From positions 268-64,267 of the forward strand of contig JAAYVR010000068.1 in assembly GCA_012517065.1 (NCBI GenBank): 64,000 nt of DNA. The letters are read 5' to 3'. Shown piece after piece: positions 4,142 to 35,700 of this stretch; the first letter of the stretch is position 1, and each line of letters begins with the position of its first letter. The translations under genes were made by a program, and so were the position numbers. The stretch is from Verrucomicrobiota bacterium (GTDB lineage Bacteria; Verrucomicrobiota; Verrucomicrobiia; Limisphaerales; J093). The notes below the pieces were generated by a model that searched no databases, was not told the origin of the DNA, and was given only the letters and a program-made list of their open reading frames with translations.

Positions 4142-4178
4142 TTGCCGTATTATCCCGCCATTGTCAAATCAAGATTAA

Positions 4179-4735
4179 CCCGCACATTTCCCAGCCCGGC
4201 GTAGCCGGAACCAAAGTGGCCTGACAGGCAGCGCCCCGGCTCCAGAGCCCCCTGTGGCTGTCAGCAACGCCAAGCTGGGAAATGTGCCCTGCGACTCCAT
4301 CGCAAGCAAAAGTGCTCTGATTAAGCCCCCACTGGATCGCGCCGCTGATCCCGAGGGTTTCTTACGCGCTGCCGCCGATGCAGTGGGCGTTGGTAGGCGC
4401 CAAGCGCTTGGAGTGCGGCAGCTTGCTGCCGCTTTGTTTCTATGCACAAACAACGTGCCTGGAACCAGATCGGCATGACGTAGAAAACTACGTGTCTGTC
4501 CCCATATCTGCGTCCGGGGCGTTCCTCGGCAGACTTCGGCAACCGCCGATCGGAACAAGGGGCAACTTGCGGGCCACGCCGCAATCAGGGGTCAAAACCC
4601 AAACAACGAGCCTGTCACTTTATCCAACTCACCCCCAAAGGCGGTGCTATTGTGACCAGAGCCCCCTGCGGCTGTCAGCCGCGCCGGTCTGCGAAATATT
4701 TGCTGCGACTCCATCCCTGAACAAAGCACAGCTAG
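4179..4735 (+). repeat. R1 dispersed intergenic repeat, long copy (modules i, ii, T, linker, iv, plus a second partial module ii)
   Basis: It starts at cccgcacatttccc, like the copies at 13606 and (reverse complement) 18901. The core 4377-4510 is about 92% identical, without indels, to 13777-13910. 4561-4635 matches 1-75. There is no coding-like ORF. Confidence 0.85.
4415..4441 (+). terminator. Intrinsic-terminator-like hairpin inside R1 core
   Basis: gcggcag-cttg-ctgccgc (7-bp GC stem, 4-nt loop) is followed by tttgtttct. It is conserved in all three R1 cores. Confidence 0.5.
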
Positions 4736-4840
4736 CGGCAAGTACACGTCAGGCAACATGGCATCGCATGCTTGGCAGGACTGAGGCGGAGCCCAGCTAG
4801 CTATCGAACGGAATCATACGAGGACCGGGACTGATGCGAA

Positions 4841-6801: not shown

Positions 6802-7662
6802 GTGATATCATACTCGTTGGGTCGAGATTGTCAATGCCTGTCTTCACCATTTTGTCTTGGGCACGGAATCCGGAATGCAGGTTTCACGCTCTGCCCTGGG
6901 CACAGTTTCACGAACGCCGGGGTCCACCGGTGGCACGCCGCTGTTATGACAGAAGCTGTGAACATTTCCGCGCACACGCAGCGAATGGGATTTGTGGCGT
7001 TCTGTCCCGACTCGACGCACGTAATTGACCTGCCAATTGGTTTGTGCCCGATCGGATTGATGACATGGAATAACATGCGCGCACTTGATTTTCTCCAGTC
7101 GCTTGAAGATGTGGACCCTGAACGGCTGGGTTGTACCGGTGGGTCTGGCGGCGGGCAACAGGCATTGTATCTGGCCGCCCTTGACAGCCGCGTTAAGGCA
7201 ATTGTGCCCGCCGTGCTGGTCTCGTGGTTCAGACGAATTCTTTTTGTCAGCGAGCAGACGCACTGTTTCTGCAACCACGCCCCCGGTATTGCGCGCCTCA
7301 CGGACGAACCCGAGTTGGCAGGGCTCTTCGCGCCGCGCCCGGCCCTGTTCATCTGTGCCACCGGCGACTGGACACGCGATTTCCCGAAGGAAGAGTTTCC
7401 TGAGATCAAGCACATCTGCCAGTTGGTGGGCGGAGAGGTCAGTTGCGTTCAATTCGACAAGCCACACAACTATGACCGCGACAGCCGCGAGCAGATGTAC
7501 GCCTAGATGAACAAGCATCTCCTCAACGCGCGCGGACCGGATTCATTCGTCGGGGAAATTCAGACGATCCGACCTTGCCCAGGCCGAGTTCGAGCAGGAG
7601 CTGATTGGCTGGGCCAAAGGAGAACGGCGCTGATCGGCTGCATTGAGTTTCAAACAGAATGA
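6802..7662 (+). pseudogene. Decayed alpha/beta-hydrolase (acetylxylan-esterase/dienelactone-hydrolase-like) gene
   Basis: The nucleophile elbow GCTGGSGGGQQALY and a C-terminal HNYDRDSRE region are present. Only ~110 poorly conserved residues precede the elbow and no credible N-terminus exists. An in-frame TAG at 7504-7506 is followed by 51 more open codons (MNKHLLN...). Confidence 0.5.
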
Positions 7663-7714
7663 ATATTGTGCCAGGCGCGTTGTGCCGGGCCATCGTTTCA
7701 GCGAGATTTCCGGG

Positions 7715-8596
7715 CTAATGCGCTCGCCGCAGGCCGCGCTCAACCAAGAACCGCACAAAGTCCGCCGGCCGATCTGTCTGATACCCGTCGGCGAGCAAAG
7801 AAATCGTATTATCCCAGAAGGAGGTGTCTTCCTTCGGCCCTTGGATATCGGGCCAAACGGCTAGCCCGCACTTCTGCGCTTCGCGAACCAAAGCCGGTGT
7901 GTAGAGCGCAACCGGCCCATCCAGAATATCTACTTGCAGGCGCGCCTTGAGCGTTGGCAGTGACTCTGCCGATAGATCCTCCGGTTTGGGAGACATCATG
8001 GTCCGCAAGGCCGGTTCGAGTATCTTCCACAGGCGAAGCGCGTCGCGCTGGTCATAAACGACGGTGGAACTTACCATCCGGTAATCTCGCAGCAACTGCA
8101 CCACCTTCGCACGGTCGCCGCTCTTGAAGTCTAGATAAAGCCCGGCTTTGTCCTGCAGCGCGGCCAGCGCCTCGGTTAGGCGCGGCACTTTGGACGGCTG
8201 CAGGTGTGGCCTCTGGCGGTCCACCAAATGAAGACGCGCGATTTCGGCGATGGTCAACTCCTCGACACGCCCATGCCCGTCTGTAGTGCGGTCCACGGTT
8301 GCGTCGTGCATCAGCACCAACTCGCTATCCCGCGTGGCGCGGACATCGAGCTCGATGTAATCCGCTCCTGCATGGTGAATCGCGCGCTTGATGGCTTCGA
8401 TGGAGTTCTCATGAGCTGCCGTGTGATCGCCGCGGTGCGCCACGACGATCGGCCTCGGCGCGGCACGGCCTCGCCCCAAAGATTCAGTCGTGGAACTTCC
8501 GTCATCCTGTTTCCTGTCAAACGCCAAAGCCGCGAAGACAGTTGCGAGCACCGCTGTGGCGGTAGCAATGGTTTCTAGAGGGGATCGCCCGTTCAT
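7715..8596 (-). CDS. Glycerophosphodiester phosphodiesterase (GDPD) family protein
   Basis: 293 aa with an N-terminal TM/signal segment. GDPD motifs are VVAHRGD...ENSIEAIKRAI..GADYIELDVRATRDSELVLMHD. Confidence 0.85.
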   Translation of the reverse strand: MNGRSPLETIATATAVLATVFAALAFDRKQDDGSSTTESLGRGRAAPRPIVVAHRGDHTAAHENSIEAIKRAIHHAGADYIELDVRATRDSELVLMHDATVDRTTDGHGRVEELTIAEIARLHLVDRQRPHLQPSKVPRLTEALAALQDKAGLYLDFKSGDRAKVVQLLRDYRMVSSTVVYDQRDALRLWKILEPALRTMMSPKPEDLSAESLPTLKARLQVDILDGPVALYTPALVREAQKCGLAVWPDIQGPKEDTSFWDNTISLLADGYQTDRPADFVRFLVERGLRRAH

Positions 8597-8670
8597 GCCG
8601 TTGCCAAGCTACACCAGCTCGCCGGCGAAAGTGAACAGTGAAGATAAGGCTGCAGAACAGCCAATCTCGA

Positions 8671-8957
8671 GACCGGTTTCGATAATGCAAATCCAGCGCC
8701 CCACCGTTGACCTGCTGGGGGGCAGAACCACGTGCCTGTCCCCATATCGCATTACCGGCCCCATCAATCCGACGACCGATCTTGCACCGGTTTCGAACAC
8801 CCAGATTCGGGGTGCTACCGTTGACGGGTTGGCGGCGCCGAAACTATGTGTCTGTCCCCATATCGCTCCATTGGATCAATCTTGTTGTGGCGCAGCTTCT
8901 TGACCGCGGATGGCACGGATGACACGGATACGCAAACTATGTGCCTGTCCCCATATG
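8671..8957 (+). repeat. R2 repeat cluster carrying three CCCCATATC boxes
   Basis: ggtttcgat.atgcaaatccagcgccccaccgttgacc...cgtgcctgtccccatatc (boxes ending near 8750, 8866 and 8957). It is related to the 147-bp array and its terminal module at 24960-25113. Confidence 0.75.
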
Positions 8958-12729: not shown

Positions 12730-13605
12730 ATGACTGCGCAACTCTCTCACGATGACAGTGCTGAGGCGAACGGCTGGCAGCCGGTCACGTTTGGAGGCGC
12801 AGCCGCTCTTGCCAGAACAACAGCAGGCCGCGTGCTCCTCGTGGGCATGGTCATAGCGAGCCTGATGGCCGGCGCGGTCGCGCGCACGTTCCACGTAGCA
12901 TGGATGCCGGTCATTGAGGGCGCGATCAAATCTCTTCCGGCGCGCGCCAGCATCGTCGATGGCCGACTCCAGTGGTCAACGAACGCCCCTATGCGGCTGG
13001 CCGACAATTCGTTTCTCGCGCTTGCAGTTGCCGATGAAGGGTCTTCGGGGCTGACCGAGGCCGACCTTGCCATCGAATTTATGGAGAACGGTTGGCGTGC
13101 GACCTCGTTGCTTGGTTCGCTTTTCATCCCTTACCCGCCGGGGCTGACGATTTCACTGGACCCGGTGAGTCTGCTGGCAGGCTGGCTGGCGTGGAAACCG
13201 CATATCGTGGCGGGAGCGTTCATTGTTACGATTGTGTTTGTGTGGCTGATTTGGTTGATGGTTGGCCTTGTTGTGACACCTTTTTTGAGGGTTTACACCG
13301 CAGTATTGCAGCGCGCAGCGACTGCGGGTGACTGTTTGCGTCTTGGGATTGCCTGTTGCATGCCGGGGGAAATTGTCATGGCTGTCGGCGTTCTCGTTTA
13401 TGGCTTGCGCAGGATCAACCTTCCTGAACTGATCGCAGTTGCAGCATTGCACGTCATTGTTGTCGCCTCGTACATGCTTATCACGCCGCTCTGGTTACCA
13501 AGGAGGGAATCGCCTGAAGAGACGACCGAGTTCAAAGGCACCGCTTCCGCCAAAAAGAACCCGTTCGCTGCGCCGCCAACAAACGACAGCGAGGAACGCC
13601 CTTAG
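12730..13605 (+). CDS. Hypothetical integral membrane protein
   Basis: 291 aa with about 5 hydrophobic TM-like segments and no recognised motifs. Confidence 0.55.
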   Translation: MTAQLSHDDSAEANGWQPVTFGGAAALARTTAGRVLLVGMVIASLMAGAVARTFHVAWMPVIEGAIKSLPARASIVDGRLQWSTNAPMRLADNSFLALAVADEGSSGLTEADLAIEFMENGWRATSLLGSLFIPYPPGLTISLDPVSLLAGWLAWKPHIVAGAFIVTIVFVWLIWLMVGLVVTPFLRVYTAVLQRAATAGDCLRLGIACCMPGEIVMAVGVLVYGLRRINLPELIAVAALHVIVVASYMLITPLWLPRRESPEETTEFKGTASAKKNPFAAPPTNDSEERP

Positions 13606-13910
13606 CCCGCATATTCCCCAGCCTGGCGTCGCCGGAACCAAAGTCGCCTGACGGGCAGGCCCCCACCGGCTCTTGCACCACCCGGACCTTCAGTCACGCC
13701 GGGCTGGGAAATATGCCCTGCGACTCCGTCGCAAGGAAGAGCGCGCTGATTCCGAGGTCTCTCACCCGCTGCTGCGGATGCAGTGGGCGTTGGTAGCCGC
13801 GAAGCGCTTGGAGTGCGGCAGCTAGCTGCCGCTTTGTTTCTATGCGCAAACATCGTGCCTGGAACCATATCGGCATGGCGTACAAGACAACGTGTCTGTC
13901 CCCATATCTG
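13606..13910 (+). repeat. R1 dispersed intergenic repeat, short copy (modules i, ii, T)
   Basis: It begins at the nucleotide after the stop codon of 12730-13605 (cccgcatattcccc) and ends at gtctgtccccatatctg. It is collinear with 4179-4510. Confidence 0.85.
13815..13841 (+). terminator. Intrinsic-terminator-like hairpin inside R1 core
   Basis: gcggcag-ctag-ctgccgc followed by tttgtttct. It lies 210 nt downstream of the 12730-13605 stop on the same strand. Confidence 0.5.
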
Positions 13911-14040
13911 CACCGGTGAGATTCTCGAGCCGAGCCATTCAACGCCAAACAACCCGCTTGCGCTCCTCTCAAGAAACGTGAATCATTACGTCCGACCCGC
14001 AGCCGTGCACAGAATGCTGGCGCGGGAAGATTGATAGATT

Positions 14041-18190: not shown

Positions 18191-18253
18191 ACCGGAAATC
18201 TCACCGCCCCCCGACATTTACCCATGCCTTCATTCCAGTGAGCTTTCCGGGCT
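18191..18253. repeat. Hairpin repeat H (imperfect copy)
   Basis: accggaaatctcaccg ... ccagtgagctttccgggct. The loop ends in cttcattc, as in the 26758-26824 copy. Confidence 0.7.
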
Positions 18254-18289
18254 GGGCAACCTTGGTTCCGGCTACGCCGAGCTGGATTG

Positions 18290-18901
18290 CTATATTGAGA
18301 AGTCATTCATATTCGCGAAGATTTTCACGCTACCACATTGGTCAGTATCTCCGTATCTGCTTCTCTGATCGCCAGTAAGAGGGTCAAAACAGCACGGCCT
18401 TTGGGGTGAGTCGAATACAGTGACAGGCTCGGTGCTTGCGTGCGGACCCAAATAGGGTGACAGGCTCGGTGTTTGAGTTCTGACCCCGGATTGCGGCATG
18501 CCCCTCAGATTGTTCCTTGTTCCAAACGGCGGTAGCCGAAGTCTGTGGAGGAACCCCCTTGCGCCGATATGGGGACAGACACGTTGTTTTCTACGCCGTG
18601 CCGATATGGTTCCAGGCACGTTGTTTGGGCATGAAAAGAAAGCGGCAGCAAGCTGCCGCACTCCAAACGCTTCGCGTCCACCAGCGCCCACTGCAACCAA
18701 ACGCTTCGCGCCCACCAACACCCACTGCAACCGCGGCAGCGCGTTAGAAACCATTGGGATCAACGCGCTCTTCCTTGCGACTGAGTCGCAGGGCATATTT
18801 CCCAGCTCGGCGTGAGTGAAGGTCCGGGGGTGCAAGAGCCGGGGGGCGTTGCCAGTCAGGCGATTTTGGTTCTGGCTACGCCGGGCTGCCAAATATGCGG
18901 G
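18290..18901 (-). repeat. R1 dispersed intergenic repeat, full-length copy in reverse orientation (modules i to v)
   Basis: The reverse complement is collinear with 4179-4635 plus 95-190. Module iv is duplicated (18418-18470) and part of the core is duplicated (18660-18732). Confidence 0.85.
18633..18659 (-). terminator. Intrinsic-terminator-like hairpin inside R1 core (minus strand)
   Basis: On the minus strand, gcggcag-cttg-ctgccgc is followed by tttcttttc. Confidence 0.45.
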
Positions 18902-18991
18902 TGTGTCCGGGGTGGCCGGCGGTTCCTTGGAAGGAGTTCGATGATATTTGCTTGCCGGCCCGAGACTCGCTGCGCACTCTTTTGGGCGGGC

Positions 18992-24557: not shown

Positions 24558-24617
24558 TGAGCGGGCCAGCGACCGGAGGAAAGGCCCTTACTATTCCAGT
24601 TTTGTGCGCGCAAGAAC

Positions 24618-25113
24618 GCCCGCGCTCGTGCCGAAGCGCTGGACAAAGCAACCGCGCCGGGAGCGCGGCCGTCCTCGGCCGGGTCAATCCGATGGCCGAT
24701 CGTGCATCTGTTTCGATCAAGCAAATCTTGAGCCCGAACTTAGACTGGTTGGGTGCGGCGAAGAATTGCCGCGCTCCTGCACGCGGTGGAAAAATCAACG
24801 GCCCCGGGAGCGCGGCCGTCCTCGGCCGCATCAATCCGATGGCCGATCGTGCACCTGTTTCGATCAAGCAAATCTTGGGCCCGAGCTTAGACCGGCTGGG
24901 TGCGGCGAAGAATCGCCGCGCTCCTGCACGCGTTGAAGAAAGCAACGGCCCCGGGAGCGCGGCCGTCCTCAGCCGCATCAATCCGACGACCGACCTGACA
25001 CAGATTACGATCCTGCGAATCCAGCGCCCCACCGTTGACCGGTTGGCAGCAGAACTATGTGCCTGTCCCCATATCTGGCTGCGGGTCGGAAACTACGTGC
25101 CTGTCCTCATATG
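24618..25113 (+). repeat. Tandem array of a 147-bp unit (about 3 units) ending in an R2 terminal module with two CCCCATATC boxes
   Basis: gggagcgcggccgtcctc recurs at 24659, 24806 and 24953 (period 147). Units are about 90% identical. A 10-bp inverted repeat (gccgcgctcc / ggagcgcggc) spans each unit junction. Confidence 0.85.
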
Positions 25114-25132
25114 CACCGTGCCGCCGTAAGGC

Positions 25133-26503
25133 CTACGGTGTTGCAGCCAGCGCGGCGTCGGCTGTGGCCAAGCCCGCTCCAGTAGCGTCCGCCCCCCACG
25201 AAATGGTTGTGGTAGTGCCGTATGGCGTGTAAACCGTGCGGGAGCCAGGGGCCAGGTAGATCGCGCTGCCCTCGAGAATGGCTTCAGCTTGAGCCGCAGT
25301 CAGTGCTGGATTCTTCTGTGCCATCAATGCAACGATACCTGTCACGTGAGGGGCGGCCATGGAAGTGCCGCCGAGGAAGTAATAGCTGATCTTGCCGCTT
25401 TGGAGTTGATAGGGGCCGACAACCCATGACCCCGGCGCTGCAACATCGAGGTCTTGACCCGCCTTCTGCCGACTTGAGAACTCGGTGATGTAGAAGTGAT
25501 CTGGGTTCGTTGGATCAGCCACATTGAGAGCATACCACCACCCTTGGCTTCCTTGGCACCATTCACCCACCCACCCGCAAGCTGCGACTGAGATGACCGG
25601 TGCATAAGCTCCGGGGTAACCCATGCCGGCTGTTCCAGCATTCCCGGCAGATGCAACAATGATCACGCCCTTTGAAATGGCGTAATCAATCGCAACCTCT
25701 TCGACAGCGTCCAAGGCAGGCCCGCCCAAGCTCATGTTAATGACCACCGGGTAGTCCGCCAATGGACCGGCCTTGAGGTCTGCGACGTAGGTTATGCCCT
25801 TGGCAATGACTGATGACCAGCCCGAGCCGTTCTGGTTCAGGACCTTGACTGGAATCACAGTAGCTTTGGGCGCGACGCCGTTAATCGGAGTCCCACGCAA
25901 GCTGTAACCGATGATTGTGCTTGTGACGTGCGTGCCATGAGAGTTTTGGTCGTGCTCCCATTTGTTTGGCTGGGTGGAAACAAAGCCCATGTCACCGCCA
26001 CCGCCACCGAAACATGTTGCATACTCGGTTGCTATGCGTTCCTCCGGAAAATACTGTCGCCATGAATCAAGCAATCCGGTATCAAGTACAGCCACATAAA
26101 CGCCAGTGCCATCATAGGTGACCTGACGATTATTGAAGCCGAAGTCGGTTACGTTAATTGCGTCTAGGTTCCATGTGCTCAGACCGTTGGCAAAGTTTTC
26201 CACCAAAACCGTGTCAATTGGCGCGCCGTAGCGTTCGGCGTCGGGGTTCGCCGCAGCCACGTACGGAAGGTCTTGGATCGAGGGCAGCAAACTTGCTTTC
26301 GCTCTGATTGTGACTGCGTTGAGCTGCGGGATGGCGTCCGTGACACGGCCGTACTTGCTGAGGTCAGCGAGGATTTGGTCGGTAACATCCGTGTTTAAGA
26401 GGACGTTGATGCCGATCATGCGGTTTGGCGGCGCCGCGCTGGTGGGGAGGGCGATCGCGAGTGTTGTTGCGAGCAAAACAATAGTGAGCAGAATGCGTTT
26501 CAT
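25133..26503 (-). CDS. Secreted subtilisin-like serine protease (peptidase S8)
   Basis: Signal peptide MKRILLTIVLLATTLAIALPTSA from the ATG at 26503. Catalytic triad motifs are VAVLDTGL, HGTHVTSTI and GGTSMAAPHVTG. Confidence 0.9.
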   Translation of the reverse strand: MKRILLTIVLLATTLAIALPTSAAPPNRMIGINVLLNTDVTDQILADLSKYGRVTDAIPQLNAVTIRAKASLLPSIQDLPYVAAANPDAERYGAPIDTVLVENFANGLSTWNLDAINVTDFGFNNRQVTYDGTGVYVAVLDTGLLDSWRQYFPEERIATEYATCFGGGGGDMGFVSTQPNKWEHDQNSHGTHVTSTIIGYSLRGTPINGVAPKATVIPVKVLNQNGSGWSSVIAKGITYVADLKAGPLADYPVVINMSLGGPALDAVEEVAIDYAISKGVIIVASAGNAGTAGMGYPGAYAPVISVAACGWVGEWCQGSQGWWYALNVADPTNPDHFYITEFSSRQKAGQDLDVAAPGSWVVGPYQLQSGKISYYFLGGTSMAAPHVTGIVALMAQKNPALTAAQAEAILEGSAIYLAPGSRTVYTPYGTTTTISWGADATGAGLATADAALAATP

Positions 26504-26757
26504 GGTATCGATTTTCTCTCCTTTCTGATTTCGTGTTCGAATTGGTTGTTCACAAGGGCTTTCCAAGCTTCCGCCTGTCGTTGCCGATTGCATCACACTA
26601 ACGGAACGGATGCAATCCGTAATTCAGAGGAATGCCGGGCCGAAAGGCCGAGGCGCATTTGAGATTTGTTCGCAGCGCCGTGGCCAATGGAGGACGGGCT
26701 TTTTCTTGTCGGTTTTACTCCTGATGTTGATCGCCCTTGGAATGATCTTGCTGTTAA

Positions 26758-26824
26758 CCCGGAAATCTCACCGTCTGACCAGACCAAGGCACCCAAGACT
26801 TCATTCCGGTGAGATTTCCGGGCT
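26758..26824. repeat. Hairpin repeat H (perfect 16-bp stem)
   Basis: cccggaaatctcaccg (26758-26773) and cggtgagatttccggg (26807-26822) are perfect reverse complements separated by 33 nt. Confidence 0.85.
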
Positions 26825-27198
26825 AAAGGCGGGACTCCAAACAGCCGCGGGCGTAACATCGCCAAGGGTGCGGAACAATCAGTCGCGGGCAGAGTTCCGC
26901 GTTTAATCGGGGCACAAGACCGTTCACCGGGCGGCGCTCATGCTCGGTTACAGGAAAGGGTTCCGCCTAAAGGCGGGACTCTAAACAGCCGCGGGCGTGA
27001 CATCGCCAAGGGTGCGGAACAAACGGTCGCGGTCAGAGTTCCGCGTTTAAGCGGGGCACAAGACCGTTCACCGAGCTGCGCTCATGTTCGGTTACAGGAA
27101 AGGGTTCCGCCTAAAGGCGGGACTCTAAACAGCCGCGGATGTGACATCGCCAAGGGTGCGGAACAAACGGTCGCGGGCAGAGTTCCGCGTTTACGCGG
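26823..27198 (+). repeat. Tandem array of a 144-bp unit (2.6 units)
   Basis: ctaaaggcggg recurs at 26823, 26967 and 27111. Units are about 92% identical. Each unit carries the hairpins gttccgcc-taaa-ggcgggac and gcggaac-N17-gttccgc. Confidence 0.9.
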
Positions 27199-27246
27199 AA
27201 AGGTTGGAAGTTCACCTCTCAAACACGGCTCGCGGAGCGGCGAGTC

Positions 27247-27840
27247 CTACCTTTGCGAAGGCCAATGAAGCAGGTCGCAGCCGGGCCATTGGCCGAGAGT
27301 GCGCGCATGAGCGAGAATGACCGGCACTGCAGATGCGAAGTCTTGTGGTCTTTCGGCAAGCCATTTTTCGATATGATCAGGCATGAACCAGGCGCCGTCG
27401 TCGATTTCGATCGGGTGAAGCCTGAACGGACCGTTGTGATACGCGCGATAGACCCAGACGAATTCGTGATCGGTTTCGGGGCGGGCTTCGACTTTGAACC
27501 ATCGGGTCAGGTTTGAAGGTGGTTTGACGCCGAGTTCCTCTTCGAATTCGCGAATTGCAGCGGTGTCGTAGTCTTCGCCGTGATCGACGTGGCCGGATGC
27601 AGATGAATCCCAGAGGCCCGGTTGCCGGTCTTTCTTCATCGATCTTTTCTGCAGGAACAGTTGGCCGGCGTCGTTGAATACGAGGACGTGGACAGCGCGG
27701 TGCAGAAGGCCGAGCGCGTGAACTTCACGCCGTGGCCGGACTGCAATCACGCGATCGAGTTCATCTACCACGTCAAAGAGGTCGTCAGGTTTGGGCACGA
27801 GATTCTGGTCGGACATTGATTTGACGGATAATAGGGTCAT
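27247..27840 (-). CDS. NUDIX hydrolase
   Basis: Nudix box GHVDHGEDYDTAAIREFEEELGV. 197 aa. Confidence 0.85.
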   Translation of the reverse strand: MTLLSVKSMSDQNLVPKPDDLFDVVDELDRVIAVRPRREVHALGLLHRAVHVLVFNDAGQLFLQKRSMKKDRQPGLWDSSASGHVDHGEDYDTAAIREFEEELGVKPPSNLTRWFKVEARPETDHEFVWVYRAYHNGPFRLHPIEIDDGAWFMPDHIEKWLAERPQDFASAVPVILAHARTLGQWPGCDLLHWPSQR

Positions 27841-28063: not shown

Positions 28064-31000
28064 TCAGTATCGGACGCGGAAATAACTTTCCTTGCCGGTA
28101 GGAACGACGATGTACGACGTGACGTTGCTGACGACGGGTGTCCATGAACCGCCCAGTGCGGAAGCGCGCAGCAATGTGGCTCTGCCGGGCCATGTGAGTT
28201 CGATGCCAGTTGAAGTGAGTTTGGTCCTGATGAGCTTCTCGCAAACGACGGTGACGTTGAAGTAACACGTGTTTGATTGCCCGGCGAGGCTGGTGGCGAC
28301 GTTGGTGACGGTGGTGGTACCGGCTGGGAAGAAACTGCCGGATGGCGGCGTCGAGACGACTGTGACGTTGGTGTCGTAAGTTGTCCGAGCGGTGACGGTG
28401 AATTCGACGAATGCGCCGCCGTTGGTGGTGCAATTGGCGACGATCTCTTTGGGACAAGTGATTGTGACCGGCGAGGGATCAAGCACGGTAAACAGCACAG
28501 TTGCTTCGCCCTCGTTGCCCGTTGAATCCGTGCTGGTGATTGTAAGCCGGTGGACGCCGGGGCCGAGCAAAGTGCCGGCGGGTGGGTCCTGTGTTGGTTT
28601 GCCGACCTCGGGAGAACAATTGTCGGCTATTTGGACTCCGCCCACAATGCTTGGGACGGGGGCTTGACCGGGGGTGTTGGGGTAATTGTTCACGTTATCG
28701 GTGAATGCAGCGGTGGCTGGGGTGATCTGCGGGCCGGCAACATCGCCGAAGTAGAAGCAGGCGGGATGACCGTAGGAATCATATTCTGCCCAGCCGTACA
28801 CGGAGGCGCCAAAAGGCTGATCGCCGCTGACGATGTGCGAGCCGACTGTGACGGGCACGCGGGCGAATGAGTATGTTGTGCCGGGTATTGCTGAGAAACT
28901 GGCGGCGCCGATTACGACGCCGTCGAGGCGGACGCCGCCGACGGCTGCGGTTGGCGAGATTATCTGGAGATAATTGGTTGGGAAATCGTTTGTGGGGGTC
29001 GAGAAGAGGTAGGCGGTGGTGTAATGGCGAACGGCTTGGACCTGGGACATGAACGGATCGGAATTGACGACGCCGTCGTAGTCGGAGCTATTGGCGAATT
29101 GAGCGACGAGGACGGGTTTGGTGGCTGTGATTCGGGAAGCGAAAGCCAGTTGCATTTGGTGGAACTGGCCACGGTTGAGATTTGTGACGGGGACACCGTT
29201 GACAGCGACAGTCGTGGCATTGTATGCGGCGAGGACTCTGAAGACATCGCCATTTGAGCGCGTTGCCAGTGGCGCGGTGTAGAAGTCGTTGCCCCAAGTA
29301 TTGACCGGCAGGAGTTGTTCGACAAGGTGATCGCAGTACCAGAAGCTGCTGGATGAAACGCTGGTGCAGAGATGGCTTCCGAAGACAGCGATAGGTTTAT
29401 CGGATTTGATCAGCGTGCCTGTGAGGTCGGCCGGTGCTTCGCTTGTGTTGCGGAGCTGATAAGTTTCGCCTGGCTGCATGAGCAGCTCATAGGGGACGTT
29501 CGCGGGGTGCACACCGGTTCCGACTGAGGGAACGATGGTCACGACGGTGTCAGGTTCGGCCGCGGCGATAACGAACTGTGTACCATTAAGAAGCGGCACA
29601 TCAGTGAGAACGTTTCCGTATGCCATGACAACGTAACGCGTGCCAATAACAGACGCGGGGAGTGCCTGGTAGCTGTCGGTGGTGTAACGTGCGTGGTTGA
29701 ACGCAGTGACACCGACGTCTTCCGATGCGATCAAATGGACGCCTTTCTTTGTGATCTCGTCGTTGGAATCGCCGAGTTCAGCATTGCGTGGCAGTTGAAC
29801 AACGGCCAGCCGGCTGGCAGGAATGGCGAAGTTCGTGCTGAATCCAATTGAATCGATGGTTATTTTACAGGTTGTTCCGGGGACACCGTGGACATGGAGG
29901 TTGAGCTGAGGCGGGTTTGCCGGGTCGGGCGCGTAATTACCGGGGAATGCGAGCCAAAACTCGCGGCCGATACAACCGAGATCGCACCGTTCACGATCGG
30001 TAATGACCGAGACCAGGTGATCTTCGACCTCTCCGTCCGGGGCGAGGCCAACGAAGTCGAGGTCAGGCCCTTGCACGGTGAATCGCCAACGTGAGTAGGT
30101 CCTGCCGGTGACAGCGTTTTGGGGGACGCTAAATGTGAGCGTATTGGGTCCCGAGACGAGAGCGGTGCCCGCGAAGACTTTCTCGCCTGGATCAGCCCAT
30201 GAACCGTTTCGGTTGAAATCGATCCATGCGTACAAACGGCCAGCGCGCGATGCGGTTACCTGGACGGTTGCGGTGCGGCCGGAAATAAGGGGACCGGCAA
30301 AGACCACGCCGTCTTCGTCGTCGGCGTCGGGGGTGGGATGTATATCGTCACCATCGGCGGCGGCTGAGGGTTGGCCGTCTGGTTCGAGGTCTATTCGCTG
30401 GCCGAGGTTATGATCGCGCAGGTAAGCGTGACGTGCGCCGTTGTCTTTGAGCAAAGTCGGGTATGGAGCTGGTGCGTCACCGAAGTCGAATGGTTGCTCG
30501 ATATTGACCTTGTAATCCTCGACTTCGCCGTTGCTGGCTTCGCCGACGAAACTTAGTTTTCCCTGCACGCTGATGCGGAACCGGGCGAAGGTGGGGCCGG
30601 CTTTGGCATTTGCGGGGACAGTGAACGCGAGCAGGTTGACGCCAGCGACGACTGATTTCGAAGTGAAGACTTGCTCACCGGCATCGGCCCAACTGCCGTT
30701 GGCGTTGAAGTCGATCCACGCGTCGATCAGAGCGCGGTCAAAACTGCCCGACGCGGTTATTTGGACCTGGGCTTCTTGGCCGGCGTAAAGAGGAGTGACG
30801 AACACGACACCGTCTTCATCATCCGGGAGGTCGGGTGGGTTTTTATCGTCGCCGAGTGCTTCGGGTTCGGGTTGACCGTCTTCTTCGGTATCGAGTTGGG
30901 AACCGAGGCGGGGGCCGGTGGGTGAATGCCGAGCGCCGTTGTCTTTGAGTGTGGTTGGGTACGGAGGTGGAGCGTCGCCGAAGTCGTAGCGCGGGCGAGT

Positions 31001-32614
31001 GATAGTAACGATGTAATCCTCGACCTCGCCGTTGTTTGCTTCACCTGTGAAACTCAGTTTTCCATTTATGCTGATGCGGAAACGGGCGAAGGTGGTGCCG
31101 ATTCTGGCGTTCTCAGGGACTGTGAACGCAAGGAGGTTGACGCCTGCGGTGACTGACTTGGAGGTGAAGATTTGCTCGCCTGGGTCGGCCCAACTGCCAT
31201 TGGCGTTGAAGTCGATCCATGCGTCGATCAGAGCGCGGTCAAAGCTGCCCGACGCGGTTATTTGGACCTGGGCTTCTTGGCCGGCGTAAAGAGGAGTCAC
31301 GAACAAGACACCGTCTTCATCATCCGGGAGGTCGGGTGGGTTTTTATCGTCGCCGAGTGCTTCGGGTTCGGGTTGACCATCTTCTTCGGTATCGAGTTGG
31401 GAACCGAGGCGCGGGCCGGTGGGTGTATGCCGAGCGCCGTTGTCTTTGAGTGTGGTTGGATACGGAGGTGGAGCGTCGCCGAAGTCGTAGCGCGGACGAG
31501 TGACGGTAACCATGTAGTCCTCGACCTCACCGTCTGGCGAATAACCGATAGGCGAAGTGACGCCCTGGTTGCTGAGTCTGAATCTGGCGTAAGTTGTGCC
31601 CGGCGTGGCCGTGGACGGGACGGTGAAGTTTATGACGGTGTTGCCCGCGTAGATGAGATAGTTGGTGCAGATTTGTTCGCCGGCGTCGGTCCAGCTTTGA
31701 TTGAGGTTGAAATCGATCCATGCGTCGAGGTAACCGCGGCCTGGAGCGACAGCGCCCGGGGCGGTGAGATAGACCTGGATCGAGGCGGTTTTTCCGGGCT
31801 CGAGGGCAGTGAGGAACGTGACGCCGTCTTCGTCATCGGCGACGCCGGGAGGATTATTGTCGTCGCCGAGAGCGTTGGCATCTGGTCGGCCGTCGGATTC
31901 GGCATCGATGGCAGTTCCGAGACAGAAGTTATTTGTGATGGCGTGTCTTGCACCATTGTCAGCCAAAGTGGTGGGGTACTTGTAAGGGGCATCGCCGTAA
32001 TCGTAGAGCGGCTGAGAGATTGCGACGGCGTAATCCTCGACCTCACCGTTGCTTGCTTCACCTGTGAAACTCAGTTTCCCACTTATGCTGATGCGGAAAC
32101 GGGCGAAGGTGGTGCCGATTTTGGCGTTCTCAGGGACTGTGAACGAGAGGGTGTTGACGCCGGGGCTGACGGATTTGGAGATGAAGATTTGCTCGCCTGC
32201 GTCGGCCCAACTGCCATTGTCGTTGAAATCGATCCATGCATCGATGAGAGCGCGGTCGAAGTTGCCAGAGGCGGTTATTTGGACTTGAGCTTCTTTGCCG
32301 GGAGAGAGGGGGGTTAGGAAGACGACGCCGTCTTCGTCATTAGCGGCACCGATTGGGTATCTGTCGTCGCCATCGGCTTTAGCGGTTGGTTGGCCGTCTA
32401 GTTCTGAATCGACCAAGGACCCGAGTCTTGGGCCGGCGATAGTATGGTGCGCGCCGTTTTCTTTGAGTGTGGTAGGGTACGGGGATGGGGCGTCACCGAA
32501 GTCGAGCGCCCTGGTTTGCGTGAGTGCGGTGTTGGGCAGGAGCAAAGCGATGCCCGCTGCCAGGAGCGGTGGGAATTGCACTGCCGCCAAAAGGAATGTG
32601 TGCTTAGCTTTCAT
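28064..32614 (-). CDS. Secreted 1516-aa protein: five GEVED domains, an IgGFc-binding-N-terminal-like domain, HYR-like domains and a C-terminal FYRV-type tail
   Basis: Signal peptide MKAKHTFLLAAVQFPPLLAAGIALLL. Five ~167-aa units each begin FGDAP.PYPT and end GEVED[YH]. The middle region reads REFWLAFPGNY... HYR-like segments include ITCPKEIVANC...TCYFNVTVV. The protein ends ESYFRVRY. Confidence 0.8.
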   Translation of the reverse strand: MKAKHTFLLAAVQFPPLLAAGIALLLPNTALTQTRALDFGDAPSPYPTTLKENGAHHTIAGPRLGSLVDSELDGQPTAKADGDDRYPIGAANDEDGVVFLTPLSPGKEAQVQITASGNFDRALIDAWIDFNDNGSWADAGEQIFISKSVSPGVNTLSFTVPENAKIGTTFARFRISISGKLSFTGEASNGEVEDYAVAISQPLYDYGDAPYKYPTTLADNGARHAITNNFCLGTAIDAESDGRPDANALGDDNNPPGVADDEDGVTFLTALEPGKTASIQVYLTAPGAVAPGRGYLDAWIDFNLNQSWTDAGEQICTNYLIYAGNTVINFTVPSTATPGTTYARFRLSNQGVTSPIGYSPDGEVEDYMVTVTRPRYDFGDAPPPYPTTLKDNGARHTPTGPRLGSQLDTEEDGQPEPEALGDDKNPPDLPDDEDGVLFVTPLYAGQEAQVQITASGSFDRALIDAWIDFNANGSWADPGEQIFTSKSVTAGVNLLAFTVPENARIGTTFARFRISINGKLSFTGEANNGEVEDYIVTITRPRYDFGDAPPPYPTTLKDNGARHSPTGPRLGSQLDTEEDGQPEPEALGDDKNPPDLPDDEDGVVFVTPLYAGQEAQVQITASGSFDRALIDAWIDFNANGSWADAGEQVFTSKSVVAGVNLLAFTVPANAKAGPTFARFRISVQGKLSFVGEASNGEVEDYKVNIEQPFDFGDAPAPYPTLLKDNGARHAYLRDHNLGQRIDLEPDGQPSAAADGDDIHPTPDADDEDGVVFAGPLISGRTATVQVTASRAGRLYAWIDFNRNGSWADPGEKVFAGTALVSGPNTLTFSVPQNAVTGRTYSRWRFTVQGPDLDFVGLAPDGEVEDHLVSVITDRERCDLGCIGREFWLAFPGNYAPDPANPPQLNLHVHGVPGTTCKITIDSIGFSTNFAIPASRLAVVQLPRNAELGDSNDEITKKGVHLIASEDVGVTAFNHARYTTDSYQALPASVIGTRYVVMAYGNVLTDVPLLNGTQFVIAAAEPDTVVTIVPSVGTGVHPANVPYELLMQPGETYQLRNTSEAPADLTGTLIKSDKPIAVFGSHLCTSVSSSSFWYCDHLVEQLLPVNTWGNDFYTAPLATRSNGDVFRVLAAYNATTVAVNGVPVTNLNRGQFHQMQLAFASRITATKPVLVAQFANSSDYDGVVNSDPFMSQVQAVRHYTTAYLFSTPTNDFPTNYLQIISPTAAVGGVRLDGVVIGAASFSAIPGTTYSFARVPVTVGSHIVSGDQPFGASVYGWAEYDSYGHPACFYFGDVAGPQITPATAAFTDNVNNYPNTPGQAPVPSIVGGVQIADNCSPEVGKPTQDPPAGTLLGPGVHRLTITSTDSTGNEGEATVLFTVLDPSPVTITCPKEIVANCTTNGGAFVEFTVTARTTYDTNVTVVSTPPSGSFFPAGTTTVTNVATSLAGQSNTCYFNVTVVCEKLIRTKLTSTGIELTWPGRATLLRASALGGSWTPVVSNVTSYIVVPTGKESYFRVRY
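30479..31483 (-). repeat. Intragenic tandem duplication (2 x 501 bp) covering GEVED domains 3 and 4
   Basis: Long identical nucleotide runs at a 501-nt offset (for example 30781-30990 vs 31282-31490). The antisense ORFs 30531-30788 and 31032-31289 are near-identical. The encoded domains are about 90% identical. Confidence 0.85.
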
Positions 32615-32703: not shown

Positions 32704-35700
32704 TTAGAATGAGAACTCGACTGTTGAAGCCACTAACAGGGTGAGTTTCAAGTTGGTAAACAGTTGTTGGGTGGTAATGTGCAGGTTCACTGTCAGACCG
32801 CTGGGTCCGATGCCCAAGAGGGTATCCGCGAAACCTTGAGCGGCATCCTCGCGGAGGGTGTCTTCGCCCTGGTCAAAGCTCAGGTCGAAGATATACGTAT
32901 CGTTGCCGTAGCCACCGAAGAGGCTGTCGTTGCCGCCGTTACCGCGGAGTGTATCGTCGCCGGCGCCGCCGACCAAGATGTCGTTACCGCTACCGCCATA
33001 GAGCGTGTCGTTACCGCCCATTCCGACGAGCGATGCAATGCCCGAGAACATGGTAGCGTCGATGATGTTGTTGGATTTGCCGCCGACCAGGAGAGCTGCG
33101 CGGATGTCGATCAGTGTGTCAGTTTCGGTGCCTATTCTGAGGGATGCGTCACTGAGTTCGAAGTTGGCGTCGCGTGTTTCCCAGATTGTGTCGAGTGTGC
33201 CGCCGTTGCCAATGATCAAGTCGTCGCCAAGTCCGCCGATGAAGATGTTGTTCAGGTCGTTGCCGATGAGGACGTCGGCGTTGCGGGTGCCAATGATATT
33301 CTCGATTGCGTTGTCGTCTGAGAGGGTGAGCTTGAGGTTAGTAGCGTGCACGGTTTGCTGGGTCGTGAGTGAGAGATCGCCGATGACGCCTGTGGAAGTT
33401 GTGGCTGAAAAGTCGAGAGTGTCGAATCCGCCGGCGGCACCGGGCGACTCGAGGATGAAGTCCTCTCCGAGGGCGTCATCCACGTTGAAGCGGTAAGTAT
33501 CATCCCCGCCGTTACCGCTGAGGATATCGTCACCTGCTCCGCCGACGAGGACATCCTTGCCGGAACCGCCGGATAGGAAGTCGTTGCCGCCGAGGCCGAT
33601 CAATGTTGTTTGGCCGGTGAAGGCCGAGGCATCGATGGTGTTGTCGGAGGAGCCGCCGGTGAGGACAGCCTTTTGGATGCTCGAGAGGGTTGTCGAGACA
33701 CCTGCGATGGTGATCTCGGTGTCGGTGAGTGTGAAGTCGGCGTCGGCTGTTTCTACGATTGTGTTTGTACCGCCAGCGCCATGGATGAAGTTCTCGCCGG
33801 GCCCGCCGGTAAACGTATTGTCGAGGTCATTGCCGAGGAGCATGTCGTCGCCCGAGCCACCGATTATGTTTTCGATGTCAGGCAGAAGGAAGTAGAAGTA
33901 CAGCTCATCCGTGGCGGCAGTTTGTGTGGAGCCGAGGGTGCTGAGGTCGATTGTGAGGTCGAGGGCGAACGCTGACAAATCCAACGTATCGATGCCGTTG
34001 TCAGTGCCGTCGGAGTTGCCACCCACAACCACGTTGATATCCATTCCTGCCTGGCCGTCTTGAAGGAAGATGAATAGGTCATCACCGTCGCCGCCTTCGA
34101 GCCAGTTTGCGCCGGGGCCGGGCATGATTATGTCGTCGCCGGCTTTGCCGTAGATGAATGCCGCGCCCGTGAAAGCCGAAGCATCAATGGTGTCATTGTT
34201 GGCGGTGCCAACGATGAATGCTTGTTCGACCGAGTCGAAGAAAATAGAGCTGTCGCTATTAGTGAATGTGACGCTTGAATTAGTGATCGTTGTTGAGCTG
34301 CCGGGTTGTGTGGGGTCTGTTGGGGTTGGGATATTGAGTTTGACGGTGTCGGTGCCGCCAGCAGCTTGGATGATGAGGGAACCGGTGGTCCATCCGCTGA
34401 CGTCGAAACTGTCATCATTAGCGCTGCCGACCATGACAGCCGTTTCGATTCCGATCAGCGTATCGACATCTATGATCGACTTGTCGATTGGGAACGGTAT
34501 TGGATCGTGTTGTGTGATGAAGAGTAGATTATTCTGGAGGACGAAGCTGACCTTCCATGTGACAGCAGAGAGGTCTTCAGCGATCGAGTTGTCGCCGGCA
34601 CCGCCGTCGAGGATGTCGTTGCCGCCGTTGCCGGTGAGGGTATCATTGCCGGGGCCGCCGCGGAGGATGTCTGCGCCTGAACCGCCGATCAGGGTATCAT
34701 TGCTCTCGTTGCCGACGAGGGTAGCTCGACCGGAGAAGTTGGACGCGTCCAAGCTGTTGTCGTTTTGGCCGCCGACTAGAGTTGCGCGTTCGACTGAGGA
34801 CAGAGTCATGGACGCTGAGGTGGCGCCGGTGGTCATTGTCACGGAGGTGTCAGTGAGGATGAAATTGGCATCAGCTTCCCAGACGATGGTGTCGATTCCG
34901 GCCGCGCCATTGATGGAGCCGGTACCTGTCCAGCCTGTGAGGGTGAAAGAGTCTGCTCCGGGACCGCCTGTTAGATTGGCGATTTCGATACTGTCGAGTG
35001 AATCTTCTTCTATTCCGCGTATGAGCTTTTTGTTTGTGAGGGTGAAACTGGCGTTTGCGGATTCGTCAATTCTGTCTGTGCCCTCGCCGCCGAGGAGGGT
35101 ATCATTGCCGGGTCCACCGTCGAGGATATCGTCACCGTTCTTGCCATCGAGCAGGTCCACTCCGGGTCCGCCGTGGAGGATGTTGTTGTTGCCGTTGCCA
35201 CGGATGACGTCGTTTAGCGCGCCGCCGAAGACTTCCTCGATGCCTTCACCGACCAACTTGAGCTGGAGGTTAGCGTTGACAGCTTGGAAAGCGTCGAGAA
35301 TGCCCATGTTAAGGTTGATTTGTTGGCCGGTTGTGGGCGAGAAATCGAGGGTGTCGGTTCCCGGGTCGGACAATAGCTCGACGATGGTTTCACTGCCCCA
35401 AGCGAGGTCAGTATCAAAGACATAAGTTTCGTTTCCGGGGCCGCCTGCGAGCAGGTCATCGCCGGGTCCGCCGATGAGGACATTATCGAGGGCGTTGCCG
35501 TAGAGTTTGTCATTGCCAAAGCCGCCTGTGACGTTTTCGAGGTAATCTTTGAGTATGAGGGTGAGGTTGCCGTTGACGTCCTGAGTTGAGTTGAGCGTTT
35601 CGAGGTGAACGATGAGCTCGGCGACGGTGCCGGTGAAATCGAGAGTATCGGCGCCGCCGTTCCCGGTAACGGTGATGGTATCGAGTGGTGAATCTGCGAG

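Follow-up and report, generated by a model that had tools for sequence, protein, structure and literature searches.

A short asymmetric box shared by head-to-tail mosaics of intergenic repeats in an uncultured Verrucomicrobiota clade

Mosaic repeats between genes

Mosaic intergenic repeats are known mainly from the Proteobacteria, where the "bacterial interspersed mosaic elements" (BIMEs) and the "Neisseria intergenic mosaic elements" (NIMEs) are built on a hairpin unit that is read by an enzyme specific for single strands (RAYT, SsnA). Pneumococci carry the modular BOX elements, boxA-boxB(n)-boxC, which are non-coding intergenic repeats of fixed orientation and variable unit number and whose modules are thought to fold jointly as a structure resembling a "miniature inverted-repeat transposable element" (MITE). 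In families of "repetitive extragenic palindromes" (REPs), most dimers are inverted, and few or none are head-to-tail (PMC3733652). In Neisseria, the 20-bp repeat dRS3 bounds the "repeat sequence" (RS) modules of NIMEs and has an extended form, NTS (PMC11893778, PMC1797815), which the GIY-YIG nuclease SsnA cleaves in single-stranded form (PMC11893778). Here, the 64-kb stretch of Verrucomicrobiota DNA presented above, referred to as a whole as "the window," is analyzed for a sequence of about 20 nucleotides (nt), ACGTGYCTGTCCCCATATC, referred to as "the box." We read the box, tentatively and with somewhat less than even confidence, as a site of joining or recombination at the level of DNA in a lineage-specific mosaic repeat system of an uncultured Verrucomicrobiota clade. 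A search of the literature returned only chance matches to the box sequence in unrelated eukaryotic papers, and no paper was found on such intergenic repeats in the Verrucomicrobia.

The box and its arrangement

Eight copies of the box lie in the window, six of them exact and two variant, where about 0.04 would be expected. The pattern RYGTGYCTGTCCCCATATC, with up to three mismatches, gives 10 matches (0.04 expected from shuffles that preserve dinucleotide composition), and the 13-mer core CTGTCCCCATATC, with up to two mismatches, gives nine (1.07 expected). Seven more diverged copies are also present, and all 15 of the box-like sites counted in a 19-mer scan fall within the roughly 6.3 kb of intergenic DNA, with none in the roughly 57.7 kb of coding DNA. 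An earlier, sequence-only reading of the window had reported at least eight recurrences of a box of about 20 nt, all of them intergenic; both statements stand, with coordinates that shift by only 1-2 nt. Its main copies and its half-copies of the "GGAACC" type were correct, but the TCAC and GGCAC variants (five sites) were not grouped with the box.

Related loci, pooled with the window, form a data set of 656 kb; as short-read contigs break within arrays, the array lengths and copy numbers derived from it are minimum estimates. In a scan of one genome per species, in which at least 18 stretches matched, the box was found on at least seven separate contigs of the Verrucomicrobiota metagenome-assembled genome A05DMB-I-23; the other 11 of the matches listed are isolated single matches in unrelated taxa and were taken as chance. 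A stricter 21-nt pattern matched at least 120 metagenome stretches from few samples, and neither the box nor the composite element described below has a match in viral contigs or in plasmid or phage collections. The contigs that bear boxes encode DUF1559 and prepilin-type N-terminal methylation domains, typical of the Planctomycetes-Verrucomicrobia-Chlamydiae group. The box is thus a high-copy feature of one uncultured clade, present in independent assemblies, and not an artefact of assembly.

In the pooled data, CTGTCCCCATAT occurs 285 times, or 200 times once redundant contexts are removed. Positions from about -12 to +16 (CAAAC-AACGTGYCTGTCCCCATATC-gGc) have high information content and those beyond, on both sides, about zero, the length of the conserved core being about 25-27 nt. 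Sites matching ACGTGYCTGTCCCCATATC with zero, one, two, three, and four mismatches number 153, 117, 46, 39, and 97, compared with about 0, 0, 0, 0.3, and 3.7 in shuffled sequence. Variation in the box takes the form of discrete sub-families around an invariant CG.GYCTG...C core rather than of random decay: the mismatches are non-random, CG.GYCTG and the C four bases on are almost invariant, and the 3' half comes in the discrete versions TCCCCATATC, GGAACCAGATC, TCACYYTATY, TCCCTCTATT, and GGCACTYTATT. The box is asymmetric and non-palindromic and is without a hairpin; the best stem closing it averages 3.97 bp, compared with 4.05 +/- 0.04 bp when the 3' flanks are permuted among copies. The tetranucleotide GTAG is found only in some 37-nt linkers (4479-4482 in the window) and is not conserved among copies.

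What lies on either side of this core is highly varied. The 50-nt flanks cluster into 64 upstream and 71 downstream groups, of which the large clusters pair in many combinations, and the box joins at least 10 upstream with at least 8 downstream module families, again in many combinations. From the window alone, a short conserved sequence had been described as common to two otherwise unrelated repeat families; this is borne out, and the relatives show far more families than two. Neighboring boxes up to 400 nt apart have the same orientation in 264 cases and opposite orientations in 4, and their spacings are discrete, at 37, 97, 107, 116, and about 146 nt. Tandems of 37 nt are present on three contigs (L028, L040, and L070), and on another (L022) there are about 50 boxes, with two to three alternating spacer modules in the unbroken array to which 45 of the boxes belong. 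The inserts between boxes are non-coding, 18-130 nt in length, and themselves members of repeated families. Of 167 arrays, 55 have repetitive DNA that ends no more than 10 nt past the last box, on its 3' side, and of 149, 35 have an equally close limit at the first box, on its 5' side; only two boxes were found with unique DNA on both sides.

Genes in these loci were called with a simple codon-frame model of our own, which missed none of the genes supported by Pfam over the first 28 kb of the window. By these calls, coding sequence makes up 70% of the pooled DNA, but predicted genes contain only 15 of 200 boxes (92% outside). Relative to the gene downstream, the box points the same way in 65 cases and the opposite way in 66, the corresponding counts for the upstream gene are 50 and 63, and the median distances between box and gene are all about 450 nt. 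A bias of strand and position relative to genes had been proposed as a check on the box; in the pooled DNA the extragenic bias is present and a strand bias is not. A gene-oriented promoter or terminator was rejected as an identity for the box, there being no bias of orientation or distance toward genes (65:66). A test of box orientation against GC skew on short contigs gave 23 versus 40, a weak result that is confounded by coding strand and is not relied on. All five transfer RNA (tRNA) genes on box-bearing contigs (L014, L051, L095, L099, and L102) are co-oriented with their nearest boxes, and in four of these cases the distance from the tRNA to the boxes downstream of it is 100-600 nt; this small sample is not relied on either.

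Turnover between close relatives

Three relatives, L141, L142, and L143, share about 88-91% nucleotide identity with the window over flanking genes, and two orthologous intergenic regions were compared, one between the metallophosphoesterase and sigma-70 factor genes and the other downstream of ComB. The first measures 852 nt in the window, with an inverted composite element; 428 nt in L143, with one box variant (GGCAATATCGTGTCTGTCCCCAGATT) whose flanks are unmatched elsewhere in the data set; and at least 800 nt in L142, with at least nine box variants. Only 87 nt beside the sigma gene can be aligned in this region, and the orientation of the boxes is the same in all three. The 220 nt that follow ComB in L141 and L142 contain two box-like sites, one of them AAACATCGTGCCTGGCACTTTATTC, whereas the interval between ComB and NUDIX in the window spans about 2.7 kb (24563-27278) and holds an array of three 147-nt units (24636-25076) ending in two boxes, a subtilase gene, and an array of three 144-nt units (26823-27254). 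Box orientation on the ComB side is likewise the same in the window and its relatives. Because the modules are unalignable but the boxes keep the same orientation in relatives of about 88-91% identity, the arrays turn over completely on a short evolutionary scale, and an oriented box persists at the site.

Two side observations concern these arrays. The subtilase gene (25133-26596, minus strand) was apparently gained or lost between two repeat arrays. Elsewhere in the window, independent short-read assemblies, of the same strain or of one with 99% identity (L144, L145, and L001), all break or diverge exactly at 8922/8923, 17 nt upstream of the last box and at a direct repeat, CACGGATGACACGGAT; this break may be a strain-level difference in modules or merely a branch in the assembly graph. 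In practice, box repeats break short-read assemblies of the clade.

Copies and modules in the window

Two repeat families of the window, R1 and R2, had been described as terminated by the box, and the alignments agree: 4356-4511 matches 13756-13911 and 18548-18698 (minus strand) for R1, and 8669-8748 matches 24997-25075 for R2. Exact copies of the main box, written as the 19-mer ACGTGTCTGTCCCCATATC, lie on the plus strand at 4490-4508 (after an R1 core and a GGAACC half-box, within the composite element 4175-4657), 8730-8748 (the end of a first R2-type module, 8669-8729), 8846-8864 (the end of a second R2-type module, 8758-8845, and 116 nt past the preceding box), 13890-13908 (closing the second R1 copy, with repetitive DNA ending 7 nt past the box), and 25057-25075 (closing the third unit of the 147-nt tandem repeat). 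A further exact copy, at 18566-18584 on the minus strand, belongs to the third, inverted R1 copy. The box at 8939-8957 (plus strand) has one mismatch, a final C changed to G (ending ...ATATG), and closes the "GACCGCGGATGGCACGGATGACACGGAT" module; it is the final unit of its array and is followed by unique DNA. The variant box CTGTCCTCATATG (ACGTGCCTGTCCTCATATG), with two mismatches, lies at 25095-25113 (plus strand), 38 nt after the preceding box, and is also a final array unit.

Boxes of the GGAACC sub-family, ACGTGCCTGGAACCAKATC (ACGTGCCTGGAACCAGATC), lie at 4453-4471 and 13853-13871 on the plus strand and at 18603-18621 on the minus strand, each 37 nt upstream of a main box; these are the degenerate half-copies that the sequence-only reading had placed, rightly, upstream in the R1 cores. 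The TCAC sub-family, ACGAGCCTGTCACYNTATY (...GAGCCTGTCACYNTATY), is represented on the plus strand at 46-64 (GCGAGCCTGTCACCTTATC) and at 4606-4624 (ACGAGCCTGTCACTTTATC), the latter 116 nt after a main box, and on the minus strand by a pair, 37 nt apart, at 18451-18469 and 18414-18432. A box of the GGCAC sub-family, ACGCGCCTGGCACAATATT (GCGCCTGGCACAATATT), lies at 7662-7680 on the minus strand, directly downstream of the GDPD gene.

The R1 core module (4344-4440 and 13745-13840 on the plus strand, 18634-18763 on the minus strand) ends in a terminator-like hairpin and T run, with the hairpin at 4415-4432 (plus strand) and hairpin plus T run at 4415-4440, 13815-13840, and 18634-18659 (minus strand). 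Its 72 distinct copies, about 97 nt long, end in the hairpin GCGGCAGC-TTGC-GCTGCCGC followed by TTTGTTTC. The hairpin is nearly invariant; two copies have a compensatory AU-to-GC change, and two others have wobble changes that keep only G-U pairing on this strand. Its features fit those of an intrinsic terminator read in the direction of the box, and R1 may represent either a mobile terminator or the 3'-terminal part of a small RNA encoded in many copies. The consensus structure from an alignment of the R1 core comprises the terminator hairpin and, weakly, a second stem, with nothing further. The box starts about 14 nt after the R1 T run, and R1 copies are followed either by the box directly or by one extra 37-nt GGAACC unit inserted exactly in the register of the box; on two contigs (L030 and L038), R1 and box together form 146-nt tandem arrays. 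The third R1 copy also contains a 34-nt tandem duplication (CCAAACGCTTCGCG.CCACCA.C.CCCACTGCAA, twice) at 18663-18730 that the other two copies do not have. A small open reading frame (ORF) across R1, at 4378-4800, was rejected as a gene, with a frame-test score of 0.6 compared with at least 12 for real genes.

Larger units are also repeated. The composite element occupies 4175-4657 and 13597-13915 on the plus strand and 18252-18902 on the minus strand, and its order at 4175-4657 is a hairpin module with terminal inverted repeats, R1 core, half-box, box, a 92-nt module, and a TCAC box. In related contigs it is matched at 65-80% identity, with up to about 125 partial matches over any position and 15 near full length. 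The hairpin module at its left end, of about 110 nt with inverted arms of 21-24 nt (GCAYATTTCCCAGCCCGGCGT ... ACGCCRRGCTGGGAAATRTGC; 4178-4290, 13600-13710, and 18790-18902 on the minus strand), is MITE-like and lacks a box. In an alignment of 63 copies of the module after the box, the second box, of the TCAC type, is the best conserved part (pairwise identity 0.91, compared with 0.77 for the module), and this box was not used for the selection of contigs. In the R2 family, the tandem repeat of three 147-nt units at 24636-25076 (plus strand) has a box in its last unit only.

What the box may do

While the architecture of the repeats, their extragenic placement, and their turnover are directly observed, joining at the box and the agent responsible for it are what we infer. 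Joining at the level of DNA is favored because arrays run head to tail with a box at essentially every junction, because the flanks combine freely, because R1 copies differ by indels of exactly one box unit, and because modules turn over wholesale around a retained box. On this reading, unrelated modules of 20-150 nt would be strung head to tail in intergenic DNA with the box at essentially every junction. Insertion, deletion, and duplication of modules, and their exchange among loci, would all take place at the box and in a single orientation.

Two kinds of agent could be responsible. One would be a recombinase or transposase that acts in trans, is specific for orientation, and has its gene elsewhere in the genome; an enzyme that reads the box would probably be different in kind from the known ones and could be useful as a sequence-specific tool. 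The other would require no dedicated enzyme and would consist of homologous recombination anchored at the box, gene conversion, unequal crossing-over, and replication slippage. A length of about 25 nt is close to the minimum for efficient RecA-dependent recombination in E. coli, and if no enzyme is involved, the box would represent a clean natural case of homology anchors of about 25 nt driving the shuffling of non-coding DNA. A more specific proposal, which we consider improbable, is that of an undescribed DNA-joining system that would be specific for orientation, independent of hairpins, and encoded elsewhere in these genomes. With the box as its attachment or crossover site, this system would insert and remove short cassettes of non-coding DNA between genes at hundreds of sites, in an integron-like manner, and so build hypervariable head-to-tail arrays.

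Several points weigh against joining at the box. The related contigs were picked by an exact match to the main box, which inflates the apparent conservation of that box, and non-selected copies and sub-families were preferred as evidence to offset this selection. Conservation of the box inside the composite element, which is young, does not exceed that of neighboring sequence, and the repeats run past the last box in most arrays, so that the box is not strictly terminal. Its conservation across relatives could equally reflect a function for the host. Contigs sharing exact proteins, searched for insertion polymorphisms between strains, provided no empty and filled sites with exact junctions, because short-read contigs end inside arrays (at 8922/8923 in the window, for example). 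The search for an enzyme was also negative. In the main ORFs of the window, Pfam detects no transposase, HUH, GIY-YIG, nuclease, or recombinase domain, as the sequence-only reading had anticipated in stating that no candidate enzyme is encoded there. Among 220 proteins encoded beside boxes, a pooled Pfam scan that covered the 25 commonest families per batch, and that a single-copy enzyme gene could therefore escape, revealed no recurring transposase, recombinase, or nuclease; likewise, none is encoded by 17 genes that were scanned one by one, each bracketed by boxes or adjoining a giant array. A single XerC/D-like match, to Phage_int_SAM_4, was seen once in the search of box neighbors.

The box may plausibly be the recognition site of some protein, and the most serious of the alternatives, although a doubtful one, makes that protein an abundant DNA-binding component of the host (a nucleoid-associated protein, a protein of chromosome organization, or a global regulator). 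Selection acting on the host would maintain the box, and the modules would be carriers that spread it or just lie around it. This would fit the persistence of boxes in the same orientation at orthologous sites where the flanks have all changed, including one solitary box, as well as an invariant core with sub-family variation in the 3' half and a TCAC box that, although not ascertained by selection, is better conserved than its module. An asymmetric site of about 25 bp also resembles sites of the iteron, integration host factor (IHF), or transposase type. Less easily accommodated are the lack of polarity or preferred distance to genes, spacings that are off the helical repeat, and the size of the family, with arrays of tens of boxes and elements of at least 100 copies, which is unlike regulons. 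A DNA-binding regulator, one of the candidates named by the sequence-only reading, is weakened by the same lack of any relation of orientation or distance to genes (65 versus 66, with similar median distances) and further by the occurrence of the box within multi-copy composites and kilobase-scale tandem arrays. DnaA boxes and parS were rejected as identities, their resemblance to the box being only partial.

An element acting at the level of RNA appears unlikely. The box would be the promoter of a small RNA, read by a lineage-specific sigma factor, or a C-rich processing or seed motif, and the arrays would be tandem small-RNA genes. The R1 hairpin and T run, almost invariant in 72 copies with two compensatory and two wobble changes, are consistent with this, as is the layout of the 146-nt R1 tandems, in which about 14 nt separate each box from the terminator that precedes it and about 115 nt from the one that follows; independent transcription units would account for the absence of polarity to protein genes, and the co-orientation of tRNA genes noted above points, for what so small a sample is worth, in the same direction. 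The promoter itself fits poorly. The GGAACC and GGCAC sub-families do carry GG-N10-GC or TGGCAC as in sigma-54 promoters, but these are minor, and the main box has GT-N10-GC where sigma-54 needs GG at -24, 10 nt before the GC at -12; the main box also misfits the -35/-10 layout of sigma-70, and sigma-70 and "extracytoplasmic function" (ECF) promoters were both set aside, by eye, on spacing or key bases. Rfam gives no match at gathering score over the whole window and nothing relevant at E<=1 in 1-28000, RNAalifold finds 0 consensus pairs in 63 copies of the module after the box, and the flanks do not pair around the box. R1 copies in composite elements lack an upstream box, and boxes 37 nt apart leave no space for a transcript.

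We regard it as decidedly unlikely that the box is a relic without function, in which case all modules would derive from one ancestral repeat, with the box as their shared remnant and the arrays as products of ordinary unequal recombination. Whole composite elements are conserved as well as the box, the discrete sub-families resemble copy lineages, and no enzyme was found in the window or among box neighbors, all of which would be expected of such a remnant. Yet the flanks are unalignable across module families in which the box is near-identical, boxes are kept at orthologous sites where all else has turned over, and the TCAC box of the 63-copy module, which had no role in contig selection, exceeds the remainder of that module in conservation. 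Least probable by far is the other candidate of the sequence-only reading, a REP-like element mobilized by RAYT or another hairpin-reading enzyme (IS200/IS605 TnpA or an Ssn-type GIY-YIG nuclease), for although the box is high-copy, extragenic, short, conserved, and clustered with other motifs as in BIMEs, and although GTAG REPs abound in Opitutus terrae, which also belongs to the Verrucomicrobia (PMC3733652), the box has no palindromic unit, no complementary flanks, and no GTAG/CGTC-tagged stem, and its pairs are head to tail rather than inverted by 264 to 4. No RAYT (Y1 transposase) gene was found in the window, in the 17 scanned genes, or among the recurrent families of the 220 pooled neighbors (the 25 commonest per batch), and no GIY-YIG Ssn gene was found among those recurrent families.

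Neighboring genes and other features of the window

The ORFs near boxes in the window encode, according to Pfam, an NPCBM protein, Band 7, GDPD, a pseudouridine synthase, FolD, and a GFO/IDH/MocA oxidoreductase, together with the metallophosphoesterase, sigma-70 factor, ComB, subtilase, and NUDIX proteins. In the pooled data, box neighbors are housekeeping or secreted proteins, with some unassigned (Pfam, and NCBIfam for the unassigned proteins). Single genes bracketed by boxes encode PPK2, PhoU, TilS, a glycosidase, an HD-domain protein, a secreted protein of unknown family, and similar proteins, and the giant arrays adjoin genes for a rhamnosidase, an ABC permease, and an aminotransferase.

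Another repeat family of the window has a long hairpin, CCGGAAATCTCACCG-N33-CGGTGAGATTTCCGG, at 26758-26822 and 18192-18250, with partial copies at 428-462 and 7683-7717. It often directly follows stop codons (those of the NPCBM and GDPD genes) and may be a bidirectional element of the terminator type. Several giant genes resembling those of surface proteins fill 28-64 kb. One of these is an ORF of 6168 amino acids (32704-51210, minus strand) that contains repeats with a 27-nt period, about 29 copies of a GC-rich unit of nine codons, and has GEVED, IgGFc-binding, HYR, He_PIG/Big, and C25 peptidase domains in its neighbors. At 30173-32504, within the ORF at 28064-32614 (minus strand), five tandem units of about 500 nt correspond to five GEVED domains.

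Comparison with known systems

The box repeats are mosaic intergenic repeats, a known kind of element, but they are not members of the REP or NIME families. Their closest parallels are with NIMEs, in which a short conserved repeat likewise bounds many non-coding modules of 50-150 bp, concatenated in intergenic arrays, and which are also lineage-specific, high in copy number, and located in regions that vary between close relatives. The bounding sequence itself is quite different, for dRS3/NTS is a hairpin-forming palindrome (ATTCCC-N8-GGGAAT), whereas the box is asymmetric and stemless. The ssnA gene, moreover, is flanked by NTS, whereas no such gene was seen among the commonest protein families encoded beside boxes, and box arrays are strictly head to tail. 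With the REPs and BIMEs of enterobacteria and pseudomonads, the box repeats share the mixing of extragenic, high-copy short units with other motifs into mosaics. REPs, however, are imperfect palindromes with a GTAG/CGTC tag and are arranged mainly as inverted dimers, and the box differs in all three respects.

More distant comparisons are informative in other ways. Pneumococcal BOX elements have three fixed module types and no single linker common to many unrelated modules. Integron (attC) arrays and arrays of "clustered regularly interspaced short palindromic repeats" (CRISPR) resemble the box arrays in architecture only, in that a short conserved site alternates head to tail with variable inserts. 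The attC sites of integrons are imperfect palindromes and their cassettes carry ORFs beside intI, whereas the inserts between boxes are non-coding and repeated. A CRISPR array was rejected as an identity: CRISPR spacers are unique, uniform in length, and located beside cas genes, whereas the spacers between boxes are repeated families of 18-130 nt, and no cas domains lie beside the largest arrays. In contrast to both integrons and CRISPR, box arrays are scattered over many loci without a linked enzyme. A MITE derived from a DDE transposon was also rejected, as the units delimited by boxes are without inverted ends. What distinguishes the box repeats from the mosaics of the Proteobacteria is their occurrence in an uncultured lineage of the Verrucomicrobia, the use of an asymmetric and hairpin-free linker, the strict head-to-tail organization of their arrays, and the complete remodeling of intergenic regions between relatives that are about 89% identical in the flanking genes.

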